Virus record (IMG/VR): IMGVR_UViG_2675903509_000012
Direction: 5' to 3' (one strand)
Source: a virus
Lineage: Duplodnaviria; Heunggongvirae; Uroviricota; Caudoviricetes
DNA: 8,824 nt
How positions within the stretch are numbered: position 1 is the stretch's first letter; every line of letters starts with the position of its first letter. The notes under the pieces were generated by a model, which was not told the origin of the DNA, did no database searches, and saw only the letters and a program-made list of their open reading frames with translations. The translations under genes were made by a program, and so were the position numbers. This document shows positions 1 through 8,342 of this stretch, piece after piece.

Positions 1-1
1 A

Positions 2-649
2 CGAATATATGTTTTTCTTCTTTGCTGCTCTAGACTTAGATCCTTTAAGTCGATTAAAGGAGCAGCACAACGTTGGGCAAAGAGCTTTGCCAGAGTATGT
101 AAAGTAGCAATGATTTCTCTCTTACCTGCACATGGCACCGTAAGAATTTTTGATGCTAACTCCGATGATAGGCAAAATTATTATGGAACAAATCTTCGGA
201 CAGCTCTACAAACTTTAGGAAAAGATCTTGGAGTTTGTAGTTTAAACACAAGGGAAATAAATAGAGCTCCCACATCTGGTGATGCCGGGTTTGACCTAAT
301 TGCTACAGTGGAATTTCCTGATGGTCAAACTAGCAACTATGGAATTCTTGGTCAATGTGGTGCACAAGAAACAGGGTGGCCAAGCAAAACATTAGAGGCT
401 AACGTGTTAAAACTGACCACCTATTTCCAAATTGCGTTCCAGCATCCATCAACAATGTTCACGCCTGTTTTCTATCGGGAAGCAAATGGCGAATGGGTAA
501 GCACACACGCAACCGCTGGGGTATTATTATTAGATAGGTTGAGAATCATATATCTACTTGATAAGGCAAACCAATGGGAAGCGATAACTACCTCTGATTG
601 GTTTCGCGAATTTGAGGAAGAGCTTTATACATTAAATCCAGAGCCTTAA
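2..649 (+). CDS. 5'-truncated gene of unknown function (start lies left of the window); candidate restriction endonuclease or other effector paired with the adjacent m5C methyltransferase
   Basis: The frame of the listed 110..649 ORF has no stop codon back to position 2, so the listed Met is probably internal. It ends at TAA 647-649, 7 bp from the stop of the convergent methyltransferase. Both genes are visibly more AT-rich than the phage backbone. I recognise no family motif by eye. Confidence 0.6.
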   Translation, partial: RIYVFLLCCSRLRSFKSIKGAAQRWAKSFARVCKVAMISLLPAHGTVRIFDANSDDRQNYYGTNLRTALQTLGKDLGVCSLNTREINRAPTSGDAGFDLIATVEFPDGQTSNYGILGQCGAQETGWPSKTLEANVLKLTTYFQIAFQHPSTMFTPVFYREANGEWVSTHATAGVLLLDRLRIIYLLDKANQWEAITTSDWFREFEEELYTLNPEP

Positions 650-656
650 TAGCTTA

Positions 657-1601
657 TCAATCCCATAATTCTATTGGCAATGCCTTCGTTACAGCTTCAA
701 AAAGCGGCGGAGGCACTGCATTACCAACCACCGTGTATTTCATGCCAAGACTTGCAGCATTTGTTTCTGGAAACACTAGATCCTCAAACCCTTGTAATAG
801 TGCTGCCTCTCGAAAACTGAATCTGCGAGCTCTCCGATCCTCAACAAATCTCCATTCATCAGTTCTTACTTTCTCCATCGGAGGACTGACAGGATGCAAC
901 GGCATATGCCTTGCATTAGCAACTATTGTCTTTGAAATTTGATCCCAATCCTGGCGACGATTGCGAGACATATAATACCAATGGAATCCCATATCATAAA
1001 ATTCACCTTCTGGCCATTCAGGTAAATGCCCTATAGCATCTTTAATAGTAACATAGTTGACGCCAGTTGCTGGCCCATGAGTTGGCTGAGGGAACTCGTA
1101 CTTAACTTTGAAATCATTACGGATTCCTACGATAAATATTCTTTTTCTTTCCTGCGCTACTCCATATTCAGCCGCATTTAAAACTTTTGCGGAAACAGTA
1201 TAACCTGCTTCAGTAAAAACCCTGATCTGGTCAAATAACAAATGCTCAAAATTTTTTCTAACCATACCAGACACGTTTTCTACTATAAAAGCTTTAGGCT
1301 TTATATTGTTTAAAGCTCTAGCAAACTCTAAATAAAGAGTATTAATTTTTCGATCGGCTTTACGCGCACCACCCTGGCTGAATCCCTGACATGGATAACA
1401 ACCTACCAGCAAATCAGATTTAGGAAAAGTAGTTACATCAGCAATATTGCCTAATATGTAATCAGTTTCTGGATGATTGGCAATATAAACATCGCGCGCA
1501 TACGGCAAGATATCGTTGGCCATAAGCACATCAAAGCCGGCTCTCAAAACCCCCGCATCGGAACCACCGCATCCAGAAAAAAGTGAAACTACTGTTGGCA
1601 T
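657..1601 (-). CDS. DNA (cytosine-5)-methyltransferase, small Type II-like m5C MTase
   Basis: 314 aa with the canonical m5C-MTase motifs in order: SLFSGCGG (motif I, AdoMet binding), GCYPCQGFS (motif IV, catalytic Pro-Cys), FIVENVSGM (motif VI, ENV), QERKRIFIVG (motif VIII), FREAALLQGFED (motif IX), TVVGNAVPPPL (motif X). ATG at 1601-1599 is preceded by the SD AGGAGG (complement of 1605-1612). Confidence 0.9.
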   Translation of the reverse strand: MPTVVSLFSGCGGSDAGVLRAGFDVLMANDILPYARDVYIANHPETDYILGNIADVTTFPKSDLLVGCYPCQGFSQGGARKADRKINTLYLEFARALNNIKPKAFIVENVSGMVRKNFEHLLFDQIRVFTEAGYTVSAKVLNAAEYGVAQERKRIFIVGIRNDFKVKYEFPQPTHGPATGVNYVTIKDAIGHLPEWPEGEFYDMGFHWYYMSRNRRQDWDQISKTIVANARHMPLHPVSPPMEKVRTDEWRFVEDRRARRFSFREAALLQGFEDLVFPETNAASLGMKYTVVGNAVPPPLFEAVTKALPIELWD

Positions 1602-1604
1602 TAT

Positions 1605-1640
1605 CCCCTCCTAAAACCGACCGCGTATTATAGCGAAAGC
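1605..1640 (-). promoter_or_regulatory. Candidate RBS and sigma70 -10 element for the methyltransferase
   Basis: On the - strand, a consensus TATAAT (complement of 1627-1632) lies about 20 nt upstream of the SD AGGAGG. No convincing -35 was found, so this is weak. Confidence 0.3.
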
Positions 1641-1802
1641 CTCCGTATATAGAAGCAGGTTTTGAACAAGATTATGTTCTCACTTTTTAACAACTGTGGC
1701 CATAAAAAATTAGCTCAATATGAAAAACAGATTAATTCATTGTTTTTCATAGAAAAATCCCACAAACACTATAACATTCCCACAACACTGCAGTAGTAGT
1801 CA

Positions 1803-4079
1803 TTATTGTTTAACTGAAAAAACCGACCACTCATTAGCGACCGGATACGTGAATTTTTTCCCGTCATAATTTACGGTTGCCCCACGCGCCAGCGCCTCAA
1901 GCTCCCATCGCTGCGGCCTGATACCGTTCTGAGCAAGGTCAACGCGGATACGGGTAATTTGCATTCGTTCCGACCGGGTCAGTCTGGCCGATGGTGCCAT
2001 TTCATGCGGTTTTAACGGGCTTCCGTTTCTTTGCTGGCGATTTGGTGTTCTCAGGCCATGTTTTAATGCACCTCTGAGCGCCCTCACGACCTCCGGGTCA
2101 TTCCATTCGATGACACCGTCATCAACCAGATTAAGCACTGCTGCGGCGTGCTCAGAAGGTGTGGGAGCTGGTAACGAAGTATCACCACCGGTGAGCTTTC
2201 CACAGTTATTGACAGGACTCCGAGGCGCGGCGATGCCGCTTTTTAAAGTCAAAGGCTCAACGACCGGAACTTTCGGCACAATGCGCCAGTCCGTCGTTCT
2301 GGTGATATGAATATGACGCGCGCCGAGATGCGGCGCGTAAATGCCGACCACTCTCTCGACTTCTTCCTCGTACTCGTTAACGTCATCCGACGGGCTACGG
2401 GCGACCCTGACAGTCTGACAATCGCGCGGGACATTTGCCCCGCCCTGCGCGCTGATATACAACGCAAAATCACCACTGTCTGCAGCGGCGCGTGCAGCCT
2501 CGACGCGCTCGTCAAACTCATGAGCAATGCTGACGCCGCGAGGCAATTTGCGTAGTTCACGGTAAGCCCCCATTGTCGGCAGACCAACCGTTTTAAATTG
2601 CGGGATGCGCCACGTTGACGCCCATGCGGTAACAGCCGCGGCAGTGTCTTTCAGCGGTCTGCCGGTATCATTATCGAGCTGACCATCCAGTGCATATCCG
2701 TCGATATTTTTTGAGATGTATTTCGCGATATACCCCGCAGCACCGCCCCGGTTAAGGTGTTTCGCCTGAAAACGGTTTCGCGCGGCTCCTCTTTCGTCGC
2801 CATCCTCTTTGAGCGCATAGCGACGCATGATTTCGATAATCTGGTTACGCTGGCGTGGATTACAAAAAAGCATCATATGCCAGTGCGGCGTTCCGTCGTG
2901 GTGTGGCTCGACGACTCGCAACCCGTAGACCTGTAAATCATTATCCTTGAATGCCGTGCGCATCAGGCTCCAGATACGGCAGAGATAACGCTGCGCATCC
3001 TTTGGATTAAATGCCTCATCGTTCCAGCCGTGATTTAGCTGGACGGTTTTACTTTCGCCTTTTCTGACCTGACGTGTCGGATGATACTTTGACGGCGCGG
3101 TCAGCGTGATAAACATCCCCACATCACCCTCTGCGGCGGCGTAACGCTCAATACCGGCGATGGTGTTCATCAGCTCCATCCGGCGAATTTCAGGATTAGA
3201 AATACTGCCCATCACCTTACTGATAAGGTCGATGCGCTCGCCGGTTTCCCTGTTTTCAAGGTCACACGATTTAAGAAATTCCAGATTTGCCTGGCGGCGT
3301 GCACGTACATCACGAATGGCATGTTTACTGGCATAAGGAGAACGGTCTTTATTCACCTCCCCGACAGCAATCAGTAACGCCTCATGCCAGCGCATACGCT
3401 GGCCTTTAAGCTGATGAGTCCACCACTCATCGTTAAACAGACGGGCAATGGCAGAATATGCCTGCCTCGTGGTTATCTGTCCTTTACGGTATTTTTTCCA
3501 GTAGAGCGGGGAAATATTGAAAGCACGTGCAGCGCCAGCAACATGACCATACAGATGATCCTGCGCCTCATCCGTAAACAGCGATTCTTTTTCGCCATGC
3601 GCATCCACCCAGGCATCGCAGAGTTCCTCATACATCATGAAAAGCTGCGATGAGATACGGGCGGCAAACTTTTTCAGCTCCTTGTCATTCATCCCCGGCA
3701 GACGCGCATAATGGTCACGCTCTGCCAGAAACAGCAACGACGCGTCGGTGTTCATTTCATGGCGCTGATTCACACGCTCAATGCGCGGCCATAAACGACG
3801 CTGAAAAGTGGATGTGAGAAAATAAAACCCGTGCACCGGGCTTTTATTGCGCCGGATGTAGTCATAGCGTGAAGTAAACAGCGAGCGCAAAAAGTAAGGC
3901 AGGCGGTTAATCGTGGATAAAACACCTTGCACCTGACGCATCTCGTCACGTGTAAGGGGTCTTTCGCGCCCGACGGCCTCGCGTGGCGCGTTCCATGCAT
4001 AAGCACCGGTAAACGTCTTACCGGTGCCTGCGGCAAATGCTGACGGAGGGACAAAACGCCCGGAGGCTTTAACGGCCAT
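1803..4079 (-). CDS. A: P2 gene A-like replication initiator (rolling-circle nicking endonuclease)
   Basis: Roughly 760-aa product, near-colinear with the P2 A protein as I recall it (MAVKASGRFVPPSAFAAGTGK... N-terminus). The ORF-track start at 4121 is a TTG; the in-frame ATG at 4079 gives the MAVKASGRF start and overlaps the stop of the upstream small ORF. Confidence 0.92.
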   Translation of the reverse strand: MAVKASGRFVPPSAFAAGTGKTFTGAYAWNAPREAVGRERPLTRDEMRQVQGVLSTINRLPYFLRSLFTSRYDYIRRNKSPVHGFYFLTSTFQRRLWPRIERVNQRHEMNTDASLLFLAERDHYARLPGMNDKELKKFAARISSQLFMMYEELCDAWVDAHGEKESLFTDEAQDHLYGHVAGAARAFNISPLYWKKYRKGQITTRQAYSAIARLFNDEWWTHQLKGQRMRWHEALLIAVGEVNKDRSPYASKHAIRDVRARRQANLEFLKSCDLENRETGERIDLISKVMGSISNPEIRRMELMNTIAGIERYAAAEGDVGMFITLTAPSKYHPTRQVRKGESKTVQLNHGWNDEAFNPKDAQRYLCRIWSLMRTAFKDNDLQVYGLRVVEPHHDGTPHWHMMLFCNPRQRNQIIEIMRRYALKEDGDERGAARNRFQAKHLNRGGAAGYIAKYISKNIDGYALDGQLDNDTGRPLKDTAAAVTAWASTWRIPQFKTVGLPTMGAYRELRKLPRGVSIAHEFDERVEAARAAADSGDFALYISAQGGANVPRDCQTVRVARSPSDDVNEYEEEVERVVGIYAPHLGARHIHITRTTDWRIVPKVPVVEPLTLKSGIAAPRSPVNNCGKLTGGDTSLPAPTPSEHAAAVLNLVDDGVIEWNDPEVVRALRGALKHGLRTPNRQQRNGSPLKPHEMAPSARLTRSERMQITRIRVDLAQNGIRPQRWELEALARGATVNYDGKKFTYPVANEWSVFSVKQ
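2209..2228 (-). other. Candidate origin nick site inside gene A
   Basis: The - strand reads GCGCCTCGGAGTCCTGTCAA, which matches my recollection of the P2 ori sequence nicked by the A protein. It lies in the distal part of A (codons for AAPRSPVN), as in P2. This is recalled, not searched. Confidence 0.45.
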
Positions 4080-4344
4080 ATGAGCCAAAAGCCTCTGAAC
4101 AACGCTTGCTGAGTTGCTCAACCTGCGCGTTTAAATCAGCAAAAGATTTTGCGCTTCCGGTCAGAATATCGTGATGCATCAGGCCGGAAACGAGCTGGCT
4201 TAATTTCGGGTAATAACCAACCACCGACAGCCATTCCTGACCGGCGTTTTTACCGCTTTCCGCTCTCTTTTTCTCGTGGAGAATAAACTGAAAGCTGTCA
4301 CTGGTAACGACATAACGTTCGCCAATTTCAATACGAATACTCAT
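4069..4344 (-). CDS. Hypothetical small protein of the early operon (position of P2 orf83)
   Basis: 91-aa ORF. Its ATG overlaps the stop of the upstream ORF (ATGA) and its stop overlaps the start of A. Order and size fit the P2 orf80-83 block. Confidence 0.7.
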   Translation of the reverse strand: MSIRIEIGERYVVTSDSFQFILHEKKRAESGKNAGQEWLSVVGYYPKLSQLVSGLMHHDILTGSAKSFADLNAQVEQLSKRCSEAFGSYGR

Positions 4345-6233: not shown

Positions 6234-6527
6234 ATGAAATTAAGCGAAAAGATTAAGGCCTTGCGTGAGGCTGAAGGGCTAAGCCAATCAAAATTCTGTG
6301 AAATCATAGAGTTACCGCTAAGCACACTTAAAAAATATGAAGGAGGAAACTTTGAACCCGGTGGCACAGCTTTGCTAAAAATCACTATGCATCCCACATT
6401 CCAAAAATATGCTCTATGGCTTATGACAGATAAAACCGCGCCGGACGCAGGACAAATCGCACCGGCTCTCGCGCACATTGGGCCAGAGTCAACAGAGTCC
6501 AACCACTCCGCGAAAAGGATTGGCTAA
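6234..6527 (+). CDS. C: P2 C-type immunity repressor
   Basis: 97 aa (P2 C is 99) with an N-terminal helix-turn-helix-like region. The C-terminal half (HPTFQKYALWLMTDKTAPDAGQIAPALAHIG) closely resembles P2 C as I recall it. Divergent from cox and upstream of int, as in P2. Confidence 0.85.
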   Translation: MKLSEKIKALREAEGLSQSKFCEIIELPLSTLKKYEGGNFEPGGTALLKITMHPTFQKYALWLMTDKTAPDAGQIAPALAHIGPESTESNHSAKRIG

Positions 6528-6596
6528 CTCTATATAAAGATTACATTTTCACCATTTGCTACCAAGATGGTGAATACAGCGCCGGAGGGCTTTCTT

Positions 6597-7577
6597 ATGG
6601 CAATTAAGAAGCTCGATGACGGTCGCTATGAAGTGGACATTAGACCTCGCGGTCGCGACGGAAAACGCATCCGCAGGAAATTCGAAAGAAAAGCTGAAGC
6701 ACTAGCATTTGAGCGATACACAATCGCCAATGCCAGTCAGAAAGAATGGGGAGGCCAGCGAGCAGACCGCCGAACTTTGAGTGAGTTGCTGGACATCTGG
6801 TGGAAATATCACGGGCAAAACCACGAGCATGGAACAAAAGAGTTTAATCATCTACTCAAAACCATCAGCGGCATAGGTGATATACCAGTGAGCCGGATGA
6901 GCAAAAGGGCTTTGATGGATTATCGTTCCATGCGACTACGTGATGGTATCAGTGCCGCAACGATAAACCGTGACATGTACCGATTATCCGGCATGTTCAC
7001 AAAATTAATTCAATTGGATGAATTTTCCGGGCAACACCCAATTCACGGACTGCCGCCACTGGCGGAGGCCAACCCTGAAATGACGTTCCTGGAAAAAGCA
7101 GAAATCGAAAAACTGTTAAATGTTTTGGCTGGTGATGACTTACTTGTCGCGCTTTTATGTCTGAGCACTGGAGGAAGATGGACGGAAGTTGCCACGCTAA
7201 AACCAGCACAGATTACAAATTGCAGGGTTACCTTCCTGAAAACCAAAAACGGTAAAAAGCGAACCGTGCCGATTTCTGAGGAACTGGAGAAAAAAGTTAA
7301 AGAGGAGGCCAGCGCCAAATTATTCAAAGTTGATTATGAGAAATTTTGCGGGATTTTACGCAGAGTGAAACCTGATATACCACCCAATCAGGCAACCCAC
7401 ATCCTGCGGCATACATTCGCAAGCCATTTCATGATGAATGGGGGCAATATAATCGCACTGCAACAGATTCTGGGACATGCGAGCATTCAGCAGACGATGG
7501 CCTATGCGCACCTTGCGCCTGACTACCTGCAAAATGCCGTCGCTCTGAATCCACTAAAAGGCGGAGTGACGTTATAA
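6597..7577 (+). CDS. int: Tyrosine integrase, P2 Int family
   Basis: N-terminus MAIKKLDDGRYEVDIRPRG matches the P2 Int start as I recall it. C-terminal catalytic signature of tyrosine recombinases: R (TGGRWTE), HxxRH (HILRHTFASH), LGH and the tyrosine in MAYAHL. ATG 6597 has the SD GGAGGG 7 nt upstream; the ORF-track start at 6567 lacks one. Confidence 0.9.
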   Translation: MAIKKLDDGRYEVDIRPRGRDGKRIRRKFERKAEALAFERYTIANASQKEWGGQRADRRTLSELLDIWWKYHGQNHEHGTKEFNHLLKTISGIGDIPVSRMSKRALMDYRSMRLRDGISAATINRDMYRLSGMFTKLIQLDEFSGQHPIHGLPPLAEANPEMTFLEKAEIEKLLNVLAGDDLLVALLCLSTGGRWTEVATLKPAQITNCRVTFLKTKNGKKRTVPISEELEKKVKEEASAKLFKVDYEKFCGILRRVKPDIPPNQATHILRHTFASHFMMNGGNIIALQQILGHASIQQTMAYAHLAPDYLQNAVALNPLKGGVTL

Positions 7578-7590
7578 ATTTCCCCCTCTG

Positions 7591-7612
7591 AGTGTCCACA
7601 TAGTGTCCACAC
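7591..7612 (-). repeat. Tandem direct repeat, candidate Int arm-type binding sites
   Basis: GTGTCCACA-TA-GTGTCCACA on + strand (TGTGGACAC twice on - strand, 11 bp centre to centre), starting 14 bp after the int stop. This matches the P2 Int arm-site consensus TGTGGACA as I recall it. Confidence 0.45.
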
Positions 7613-7696
7613 TCAAGAAATTTTGAAACCACTCCAAACCCTTACAGCTTTCGATAAGTGACTGTTTTTACTTTTGATTGCATGTAAGTAATTGAT

Positions 7697-7723
7697 AAAA
7701 AAAACCCCCACATCATGTGGGGG
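7697..7723 (-). terminator. Rho-independent terminator of cpxP
   Basis: GC-rich hairpin (CCCCCAC / GTGGGGG arms, 5-nt loop) at 7705-7723, followed on the - strand by a run of eight U (complement of the A-run 7697-7704), about 40 bp after the cpxP stop. Confidence 0.7.
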
Positions 7724-7763
7724 AAGACAGGGATGGTGTCTATGGCAAGGAAAACAGGGTTTA

Positions 7764-8264
7764 CTACTGGGAACGTGAGTTGCTACTACTCAATAGCTTC
7801 AACGATGAACTTTTTTGCCATTGCGTCACGTCACGCAACTGCTCCATTCGTTGTTGATGTTTCTCGTTTAAAACCGCTTGCTGCTCCGGCGTTAACAGGC
7901 GATACATTTGGTTGCGGACTTTTGCCATCTCAACCTGACGAGCAATTTGCTCATTCGCCATTTTTTCTGCCTGTGCGCGCACAGCGTTTTCATCAAAATT
8001 TTCTGCGGTGACAAGGCGATGCATTGTCTCCAGTTCGCTAACATTAACAGGAGGCTGTTCGTGCCGGGCCTGTTGCATAAGATCTCGCATCTGCTGACGC
8101 TGATGTTCGGTTAAACTTATGCCGTCGAACATATGGCTCTGCGTACTGCGCTGCGTAAGTTCTTCACCCGGATGCCAGTTATCGCCTGAACCGACTTCAG
8201 CAGCGTGGCTTAATGAACTGACTGCCAGCGTTGAGGCCATGACGGCAGCGGTAACTATGCGCAT
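7764..8264 (-). CDS. cpxP: Periplasmic Cpx-pathway adaptor/inhibitor CpxP
   Basis: Translation matches E. coli CpxP as I recall it ([21 protein letters not shown] signal peptide, [15 protein letters not shown]). The ATG at 8264 has better SD spacing (GGGAG) than the listed 8267. Confidence 0.93.
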
Positions 8265-8342
8265 CATTTGCTCCCAAAATCTTTCTGTCGCGATTCAACG
8301 ATAGAGAGTTTACGATTCAGGCTGCAAACATGCGTCAGGGGG

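Follow-up and report, generated by a model that had tools for sequence, protein, structure and literature searches.

A three-gene cassette of ParB-domain, nuclease-like and C5-cytosine methyltransferase genes in the Q/A hotspot of a P2-like prophage: a candidate modification-linked anti-phage module

What kind of cargo does a P2-like prophage carry when the position held in phage P2 by orf91, tin and old is filled by a DNA methyltransferase gene and, facing it, a gene of no recognised family? The question is raised by a stretch of DNA of 8,824 nucleotides, here called the window, whose first 1,802 bases were taken in a sequence-only reading for an AT-rich two-gene module, most simply a Type II restriction-modification (R-M) pair or else a different methylation-linked system. 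Composition and position agree with that description. The GC content of bases 1-1802 is 0.403, against 0.533 in the neighbouring gene A (1803-4121) and 0.468 in the whole window, and the cargo lies between the P2 portal gene Q and the replication gene A of a P2-like prophage integrated beside cpxP. The Q/A locus is the tin/old hotspot, known for defence systems (Vassallo et al. 2022, PMC9519451), which supports the view of the cargo as variable and horizontally acquired. The number of genes does not agree. The block that stands out in composition measures about 3.5 kb, with a GC content of 0.396 versus 0.565 in the late genes, and holds three genes; the two-gene module was an artefact of the window edge, and the window takes in two thirds of the cassette. 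The 1.8 kb in the window are found at an identity of at least 95% in 48 of 5,426 complete E. coli genomes (about 1%).

The methyltransferase gene is complete. It occupies 657..1601 on the minus strand and encodes an intact C5-cytosine enzyme (m5C) of 314 aa, as had been read from the sequence, with matches to PF00145 (E 2.4e-64, 218 bits; cut-off 22) and TIGR00675 (dcm; E 5.9e-56, 190.5 bits; cut-off 100.65). The full motif set is present in the translation: FSGCGG (motif I), YPC71QGFS (IV), VENV (VI), QERKR (VIII) and GNAVPPPL (X), the catalytic Cys71 sitting in the PCQ motif. The protein is HaeIII-like over its full length, M.HaeIII being its nearest solved relative (E 3e-48, residues 4-308 versus 3-320), and it has arginines that align to HaeIII R225, R227 and R243, which we take to be informative on GGCC recognition; full-length similarity and aligned arginines together predict a target that is probably GGCC or a related site. 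The best-scoring PADLOC model is DruM2 (E 2.9e-113), MTase_II is matched at E 2.6e-78, and no PD-Lambda-5_B model stands among the best 25 of the 63 PADLOC matches. The resemblance to Druantia type II is confined to this score, as there is no DruE helicase, DruF or DruG and the neighbours are the two other cassette genes and P2 genes.

Upstream of the methylase a Shine-Dalgarno sequence, AGGAGGGG, can be read on the minus strand at 1605..1612, 3 nt 5' of the ATG. It lies in an AT-rich non-coding spacer of 200 bp (1602..1802) that runs from the methylase start to the end of gene A and contains no open reading frame of at least 50 aa; unlike phages Wphi and 12474III, it has neither orf91 nor orf92. 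The methylase promoter is presumably located within this spacer. A consensus scan gave no strong sigma-70 match there and no promoter-like site upstream of the methylase, and in the promoter scan such sites were not commoner than in shuffled sequence. Gene A itself (1803..4121, minus strand; PF05840 Phage_GPA, E 2e-122) is the right-hand boundary of the hotspot and stands outside the cassette, and a terminator-like hairpin found by the terminator scan at 1823-1844 (10844-10823 in the E. coli locus L001) overlaps its last codons.

The gene facing the methylase, referred to here as the partner, is convergent with it, and the 7 bp between the two stop codons (650..656; TAA at 647-649 on the plus strand, TGA at 659-657 on the minus strand) are read directly from the sequence. 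The terminator scan detected no terminator-like site in these 7 bp, and because so short a spacer leaves no room for one, the partner and methylase transcripts should overlap. The partner frame is open from base 2 to its TAA, with no in-frame stop or start codon between base 2 and an ATG at 110. It is cut by the window edge, as had been noticed: the protein annotated in a 99.9% identical E. coli locus has 329 aa, codons 115-329 falling in the window (2..649, plus strand) and the first 114 to the left of base 1 (L001 8660-9000).

Profile and structure searches bear out that the partner belongs to no recognised family and give it a fold. Scans of Pfam, NCBIfam and PADLOC returned nothing significant, and its profile against all PDB sequences gave only noise (E 0.13 or worse). 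The structural model predicts an N-terminal winged helix, encoded outside the window, and a C-terminal domain resembling PD-(D/E)xK restriction endonucleases, encoded entirely inside it. The best matches to the modelled nuclease domain are MspJI and AspBHI, and the Type II enzymes NgoMIV, BsaWI, SgrAI, AgeI and HindIII also occur among its structural matches. Where MspJI and AspBHI have an SRA-like domain for binding m5C, the partner has the winged helix, and it lacks the motif lysine. Down to 23% identity D208, D212, Q232, W240, D292, R293 and R295 are invariant; the +2 lysine position is an invariant Gly or Ala, and K243, 11 residues downstream, is nearly invariant. An hhalign comparison of the partner family with an Mrr_cat protein (from locus L035) aligned 17 columns round SGDxGxD with a probability of 1.8%, a hint only. 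The partner appears to be neither a characterised restriction endonuclease nor a housekeeping gene.

Extension to the left through identical E. coli loci, which recovered the full partner, also placed a further gene before it. This gene (L001 7549-8670) lies 5' of the partner and encodes a protein of 373 aa with a ParB N-domain; the cassette as a whole corresponds to L001 7342-10802. The two genes overlap by 11 bp and, to judge from this overlap, the partner is translationally coupled to the ParB gene. The ParB protein combines a ParB/Srx N-terminal nucleotide-binding domain with an invariant EGNRR, a ParB-like helix-turn-helix (HTH) and a helical C-terminal region, the structure prediction having been made on protein P0121, which is 91% identical to the E. 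coli protein. Its ParB P-motif includes R82 and R83, and an acidic tail (...DDDF) is invariant. It matches the PADLOC model PD-Lambda-5_A (E 6.2e-29, residues 9-282 versus model positions 7-277 of 440) and the TIGR00180 ParB domain (E 4.8e-08); its N-domain is of the PF02195 type, and profile scans gave no DUF262 (PF03235) match.

The ParB gene and the partner travel together. In all 45 loci with enough flank, from at least nine phyla, a partner homologue lies directly downstream of a ParB gene, and the two genes usually overlap or abut, with overlaps of 11-14 bp in several loci. A partner without the ParB gene was never found, either in these loci or in those phage contigs and partner-seeded contigs whose sequence continues upstream, and at the level of genome comparison the pairing is obligate. 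The modification genes next to the pair, on the other hand, vary: usually there is a methylase of the present clade (Dcm), sometimes a Dnd system, a Dam-like or an N4/N6 methylase, or none. Dcm adjoins the pair in 18 non-redundant loci, in 11 of which it is convergent and 3-41 bp from the partner stop, and PF00145 Dcm lies within 2.5 kb in all five informative contigs sampled from the partner side, accompanied in two of them by a Vsr mismatch-repair gene. Dnd phosphorothioation genes (dndBCD(A)) adjoin the pair in six loci (L030, L036, L044, L045, L047 and L054), and a D12 or N6_N4 methylase does so in two. In about 15 of the 45 loci both pair genes are intact and every gene up to 3 kb away is a housekeeping or an unrelated one, so that the pair can exist without a linked modification gene; such loci do not sit easily with a nuclease that destroys self DNA when it is unmodified. 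A conventional restriction endonuclease is found beside Dcm in four alphaproteobacterial loci, in the partner-side contig L061 and in one HNH locus, and since it adjoins Dcm there the methylase may belong to it in those loci.

The same trio of genes has integrases for neighbours in elements of Pseudomonas and Burkholderia, and it is carried by the Peduoviridae phages HQ103, 12474II-V, Wphi and D14A, a distribution by which the cassette is horizontally mobile. Where alleles diverge, Dcm retains 63-77% identity, the ParB protein 32-35% and the partner 25-27%. An apparently split Dcm in locus L067, considered as a case of methylase loss, was rejected, the DNA of L067 and L068 being identical there and the difference one of gene calling. 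As a separate observation, the Dcm copies of both loci appear to carry a stop before motif X.

The evidence points to the second of the two original suggestions, a methylation-linked system other than a plain R-M pair: a ParB gene stands upstream and the modification partners vary. Starting from the established gene content, folds, conservation, obligate pairing, mobility, hotspot location and variable modification partners, we favour, at somewhat better than even probability, the view that the cassette is a restriction-like, modification-linked anti-phage module, in which a ParB-fold switch and a nuclease, related to PD-lambda-5, would work in the manner of SspE and DndI. The methylase would put its mark, probably at GGCC or a similar site, on the DNA of host and prophage alike. 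The ParB-fold protein would bind DNA and act as a switch, its nucleotide dependence being predicted from its fold, that reads whether the DNA carries the mark; the direction of this sensing is likewise a prediction. It would then license or restrain the partner, the predicted nuclease, with the result that phage DNA entering without the mark is cut, which is the basis for the anti-phage activity predicted for the cassette. The logic would be that of SspE and DndI, in which a ParB-superfamily NTPase and a nuclease are coupled to DNA modification.

Three known systems are informative on this proposal. PD-lambda-5 (ParB/HEPN plus D12 methylase) gave broad defence in experiments, having been cloned in an mrr-deleted host, and is read by its authors as a compact restriction-modification-like system (Vassallo et al. 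2022, PMC9519451). It shares with the cassette a prophage location, the pairing of a ParB N-domain protein with a DNA methyltransferase, and the N-domain itself, the cassette ParB matching PD-Lambda-5_A at up to E 6e-29. The differences are nevertheless considerable. PD-lambda-5 has two genes and the cassette three, with a conserved extra nuclease-like gene; its A protein, of about 500 aa, ends in a HEPN/DUF4145-like region that the 373-aa protein does not have; a D12-class N6-adenine methylase (PF02086) serves as its B protein, where the cassette has a C5-cytosine enzyme (PF00145); and the effector position is taken in the cassette by a separate protein of predicted winged-helix/PD-(D/E)xK fold. 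Because the HEPN-like region is absent and the methylase is of another class, homology to this validated system covers one domain only. SspE and DndI, proteins that sense phosphorothioate, are like the cassette (as are GmrSD and BrxU) in coupling a ParB-superfamily nucleotide-binding domain to a nuclease, and like it in being tied to DNA modification by linked genes, Dcm here and Dnd in relatives of the pair. However, all of these are single polypeptides joining DUF262 (DGQQR) to a DUF1524 HNH nuclease, whereas the cassette uses two polypeptides, one with a PF02195-type N-domain (EGNRR) and HTH and the other with the modelled PD-(D/E)xK fold.

A counterpart with the same gene content is found in phage Wphi (NC_005056), where orf98-orf96-mth represent the three families, with order, orientation and hotspot unchanged, except that Wphi retains orf91 and orf92 beside gene A. 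Its gp98 belongs to the ParB N-domain family (HMM E 4e-74) and gp96 to the partner family (E 3e-32), both without annotated function in the Wphi record; mth is 76% identical to the window methylase, and the ParB and partner proteins are deeply divergent (34% and 25% identity). Literature searches by accession and keyword returned no paper characterising a trio of this type, and the ParB-partner pair is not described in the passages searched of a PNAS 2025 survey of ParB CTPases. A Druantia preprint considered as a source on ParB was discarded, its mentions of ParB concerning ParB-parS labelling and being irrelevant here.

A broader form of the same proposal is offered tentatively. The pair may be a universal plug-in restriction module, whose ParB switch, possibly a CTP- or ATP-gated clamp, would scan DNA for chemically unrelated self marks and gate the separate nuclease. 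The marks in question would be m5C, m6A or N4mC, or phosphorothioate, supplied by whichever modification system is linked.

Of the competing explanations, the one that survives best holds that the ParB-partner pair is a self-contained defence, either a Type IV-like nuclease or an abortive-infection effector triggered by infection, that does not read linked methylation, and that Dcm is separate, for example protecting the P2-like genome from host restriction enzymes. That about one-third of loci keep an intact pair and no modification gene within 3 kb is what it would lead one to expect; the modelled nuclease domain is closest to two modification-dependent enzymes, MspJI and AspBHI; and PD-lambda-5 has been termed 'RM+Abi' (Vassallo et al. 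2022, PMC9519451). Furthermore, conservation is far higher in the Dcm clade than in the pair, and Dcm also matches the Druantia methylase DruM; for these reasons it behaves as an exchangeable module. We still consider this explanation unlikely. Across many unrelated phyla and mobile elements Dcm directly adjoins the pair at 3-41 bp, either convergent or co-oriented, and with Dnd, D12 and N4/N6 enzymes in its place elsewhere, a repeated linkage to four modifying systems is hard to call chance. Phage L-413C, in addition, lost the partner and the methylase together and kept only a truncated ParB gene.

Less probable again is the explanation first proposed as the simplest, a classical Type II system in which the partner by itself would serve as the sequence-specific cognate endonuclease of the HaeIII-like methylase, and the ParB protein would be an accessory (e.g. 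a C-protein-like regulator) or a bystander. The arrangement invites it: a nuclease-like and an m5C methylase gene converge at close spacing, a layout shared by many Type II systems, Vsr genes lie beside relatives, as in m5C R-M systems, the methylase is HaeIII-like throughout, and the PD-(D/E)xK fold of the partner model brings Type II enzymes among its structural matches. The earlier statement that such systems occur on P2-like prophages holds in part: the title of Kita 2003 (PMC151499) links EcoT38I to P2, while EcoO109I (Kita 1999) is cited by Rousset et al. for a P4-like satellite locus. An endonuclease specific to one cognate methylase is, however, not what the loci contain. Partner homologues stand beside Dcm, Dnd, D12 or N6_N4 genes or beside none within 3 kb, and an enzyme tied to a single methylated site would not be expected next to phosphorothioation genes. 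Nor is the partner a stand-alone gene, on the genomic evidence of a ParB gene immediately upstream in 45 of 45 loci, which argues against a conventional Type IIP enzyme and, less firmly, against identity with EcoT38I. It is the constancy of the ParB pairing while the neighbouring modification genes vary that makes a plain Type II pair unlikely. The ParB protein, moreover, matches the partner in conservation (65% versus 58% mean column identity), which is unexpected of a bystander, and the partner lacks the canonical catalytic lysine and any sequence similarity to a solved restriction endonuclease.

A role outside defence, be it prophage maintenance, partition or gene regulation by the ParB protein and its partner, or the trio acting as a prophage addiction module, is very improbable: the ParB N-domain and HTH do resemble those of the partition and silencing proteins Spo0J and KorB, and R-M-like modules can serve as addiction systems, but no ParA-like gene of a ParABS system is annotated in the L001 or phage cassettes, no centromere-like repeat was noticed, the element is integrated, the cassette occupies a validated defence hotspot with a ParB domain nearest to that of a validated defence protein, and the pair is also found in chromosomal islands far from any replicon function.

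The cassette fills a proven defence hotspot in roughly 1% of the complete E. coli genomes and in several phage isolates, among them Wphi, a subject of long study. For two of the three proteins the annotation nevertheless goes no further than 'hypothetical' or 'ParB N-terminal domain-containing'. The present analysis turns an anonymous pair into a concrete hypothesis, that of a ParB-fold switch and a nuclease which travel together and dock onto different DNA-modification systems, and it bears on the way in which systems linked to methylation or phosphorothioation distinguish self from non-self. Host DNA probably acquires an m5C mark from the cassette, predicted at GGCC, which matters for cloning and for sensitivity to McrBC and Mrr as well as for the phage susceptibility of clinical and STEC carrier strains. 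If the tentative plug-in reading is true, the pair would represent a large defence family, of more than 1,200 clusters at 50% identity and not a system in the 2023 PADLOC library, and ParB-clamp biology would reach from chromosome segregation to the discrimination of self from non-self.

The window takes in the right end of a P2-like prophage that lies beside cpxP, and it carries, together with cox and B, the replication gene A (1803-4121, minus strand; PF05840, E 2e-122), the C repressor gene (6234-6527, plus strand) and the integrase gene (6567-7577, plus strand). The integrase end of the prophage adjoins cpxP (7764-8267, minus strand), which is outside the prophage and has cpxRA farther out, and the attachment site is therefore placed between int and cpxP (7578-7763). 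Bases 1-1802 stand out in composition (GC 0.403 vs 0.533 in gene A) and hold an intact C5-cytosine methyltransferase gene with all catalytic motifs (657-1601, minus strand; PF00145, E 2.4e-64), as well as a plus-strand frame, here called the partner, which is open from base 2 and whose stop (647-649) is 7 bp before that of the methylase (657-659). What the sequence-only reading had said of the window itself, including truncation of the partner by the window edge, was correct throughout. The final codons of gene A overlap a terminator-like hairpin with a T-run (1823-1844, minus strand), so that A transcripts probably stop shortly before the cargo; in that case the methylase would need its own promoter in 1602-1802, where a consensus scan found no promoter-like site.

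Of 5426 complete E. coli genomes, 48 carry the 1.8 kb of cargo with at least 95% identity, and the copy in NZ_CP077477 (locus L001) has one mismatch to the window. There the AT-rich block is about 3.5 kb long (GC 0.396; late genes, 0.565), is flanked by portal gene Q and gene A, and contains a gene for a 373-aa 'ParB N-terminal domain-containing protein', the complete partner gene (329 aa, 'hypothetical protein'), which overlaps the ParB gene by 11 bp and has codons 115-329 in the window, and the methylase gene, convergent to the partner. The leftward extension suggested earlier thus recovered the whole partner with a ParB gene upstream of it; both genes of the proposed two-gene module are real, but the module is a trio of which two thirds had been visible. 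The Q/A interval is a P2 hotspot where tin and old are found along with numerous further defence systems (Vassallo et al. 2022, PMC9519451). Of the two restriction-modification precedents named earlier for P2-like prophages, EcoT38I is tied to P2 by the title of Kita 2003; for EcoO109I, the paper is Kita 1999, which Rousset et al. cite in connection with a P4-like satellite locus.

The partner has no match in Pfam, NCBIfam, PADLOC or PDB sequences, and no model in the 2023 PADLOC library. Its family comprises 1254 clusters (50% identity) at E ≤0.001, and the best 150 matches are nearly all stand-alone proteins, about 300-365 aa long, of which the shorter cover part of the profile only. Residues D18, E21, R87, Y95-P96-F97, Y117, F143, D208, D212, Q232, W240 and D292-R293-x-R295 are invariant down to 23% identity, and K243 is nearly so. 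The motif SGDxGxD(212)-x19-GQ(232)C resembles the D...QxK site of Mrr/MspJI, with the lysine position always Gly or Ala, so that the active site is predicted to be either rearranged or dead; this missing lysine is the weakest link in the assignment of the partner as a nuclease. The ParB protein matches PADLOC PD-Lambda-5_A (E 6.2e-29, residues 9-282) and, weakly, ParB domain models; a motif of nucleotide-binding type, EGNRR, is invariant, and no nuclease or HEPN domain was seen in it. In the family alignments its C-terminus is an acidic tail with terminal Phe (...DDDF, ...DEDEF) throughout the clade of about 46% identity or more and in the distant locus L039, the Phe being absent from more distant clades. 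The tail, encoded outside the window (L001 8623-8670), resembles the C-terminal tip of SSB (DDDIPF) and could be the peptide through which the partner or SSB-binding proteins dock.

From end to end the methylase resembles HaeIII (1dct, E 3e-48, residues 4-308 vs 3-320). It has arginines aligned with HaeIII R225, R227 and R243, residues that contact the GGCC site, so that a GGCC-like specificity is predicted. Its best PADLOC model is DruM of Druantia type II (E 2.9e-113, 377 bits), while generic Type II methylase models score lower (262 bits); several non-classical defence systems may share this Dcm clade as their modification module.

A scan seeded with the ParB alignment, with one genome per species, gave 49 loci of 29-64% identity from Proteobacteria, Bacteroidota, Acidobacteriota, Planctomycetota, Chloroflexota, Armatimonadota, Abditibacteriota, Campylobacterota and Bdellovibrionota. 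A partner homologue directly follows the ParB gene in all 45 loci with enough downstream sequence, and the two genes are therefore an obligate unit. The third component differs between loci. A PF00145 methylase adjoins the pair in 18 non-redundant loci, in 11 of which it has the window's convergent layout, 3-41 bp from the stop of the partner; the convergent clade is still 63-77% identical to the window enzyme where ParB is 32-35% and the partner 25-27% identical. Six loci have Dnd phosphorothioation genes (DndB, C, D and A) beside the pair, and one locus each has a D12 methylase, an N6_N4 methylase or a Type I specificity subunit there. Around 15 loci, mostly from Bacteroidota, have, within 3 kb, no genes other than housekeeping or unrelated ones.

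Between Dcm and the pair, four alphaproteobacterial loci have a NotI-like REase gene and one locus an HNH gene. The NotI-like arrangement, with a distant Dcm, is found in L024, L027, L028 and L051 (Sphingomonadaceae, Erythrobacteraceae, Sulfitobacter) and in the partner-seeded contig L061; the REase and Dcm are a conventional Type II system, which may share its methylase with the pair or reflect plain defence-island clustering. In sampling from the partner side, all five informative contigs had a PF00145 Dcm gene no more than 2.5 kb away, accompanied twice, in unrelated metagenomic lineages, by a gene for the very-short-patch mismatch-repair endonuclease Vsr (L062 2320-2775; L067/L068 5463-5912). 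Vsr goes with active m5C methylases, and its position implies that the adjacent Dcm would methylate the host genome. At about 3090-3110 in L067/L068, where the pair is divergent, the adjoining Dcm seems to be interrupted by a stop or frameshift immediately ahead of motif X (..TRIDTEQ, a stop, then out-of-frame IGNAACVPV); the DNA is identical in the two contigs, and the gene may be a pseudogene or contain a sequencing error common to both.

The trio is mobile: integrases adjoin it in Pseudomonas nitroreducens and Burkholderia vietnamiensis elements, and it is carried by the Peduoviridae HQ103 (identical), vB_EcoM-12474II-V (58-61%), Pseudomonas phage D14A and Wphi. The last, a classical, long-sequenced P2-like phage, has a divergent copy, orf98-orf96-mth (L056; NC_005056, 29419-32589), annotated only as gp98, gp96 and 'mth'; gp98 and gp96 match the family HMMs (E 4e-74 and 3e-32), and identity to the window cassette is 76% for the methylase and 34% and 25% for the other two proteins. 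In Yersinia phage L-413C, the diagnostic phage for Y. pestis, a truncated ParB N-domain gene (L060, 29530-30522; 62% identity across 79% of the protein) is all that is left, immediately next to orf91; the partner and methylase have been lost, and the locus looks like a decayed cassette. The peduovirus ValB1MD-2 of Vibrio has, as one operon beside the integrase, genes for a shorter, 252-aa ParB-like protein, a 265-aa hypothetical protein and a DNA adenine (Dam) methylase (L059, 31046-33485), which looks like a split PD-lambda-5-like arrangement.

PD-lambda-5 is the closest validated relative of the cassette. It consists of a ParB/HEPN protein and a Dam-like methylase, gives broad protection and required an mrr-deleted host for cloning (Vassallo et al. 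2022, PMC9519451); the ParB domain alone is common to both, so strictly speaking the cassette is no member of PD-lambda-5. In mechanism its closest precedents are SspE and DndI, whose ParB-superfamily NTPase domain detects a DNA modification and governs the nuclease attached to it. This kinship, this logic and the misfit of a plain Type II pair lead us to propose, with moderate confidence, that the HaeIII-like methylase would supply a self mark, that the ParB-fold protein would act as a nucleotide-dependent, DNA-bound switch reading it, and that the partner would be the effector nuclease. Confidence is held at that level by the loci lacking a linked modification gene and by the missing lysine; both leave room for a pair that acts independently of the methylase, which we consider unlikely. 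The Type II restriction-modification pair offered earlier as the simplest reading does not fit, since the nuclease-like gene is bound to a ParB gene and not to one fixed methylase, and the same pair also docks onto phosphorothioation genes.

In the literature searched, no paper naming or testing the ParB-partner-methylase cassette was found. Its ingredients, a P2 hotspot, a ParB-domain defence protein, a methylase and an REase fold, are familiar, and it is not categorically new. Beyond the proposed reading of a methylase mark by the ParB switch, it is conceivable, though we would put it forward only tentatively, that a ParB-type clamp or switch might in general read DNA marks that are unrelated to one another, and gate a nuclease separate from itself.
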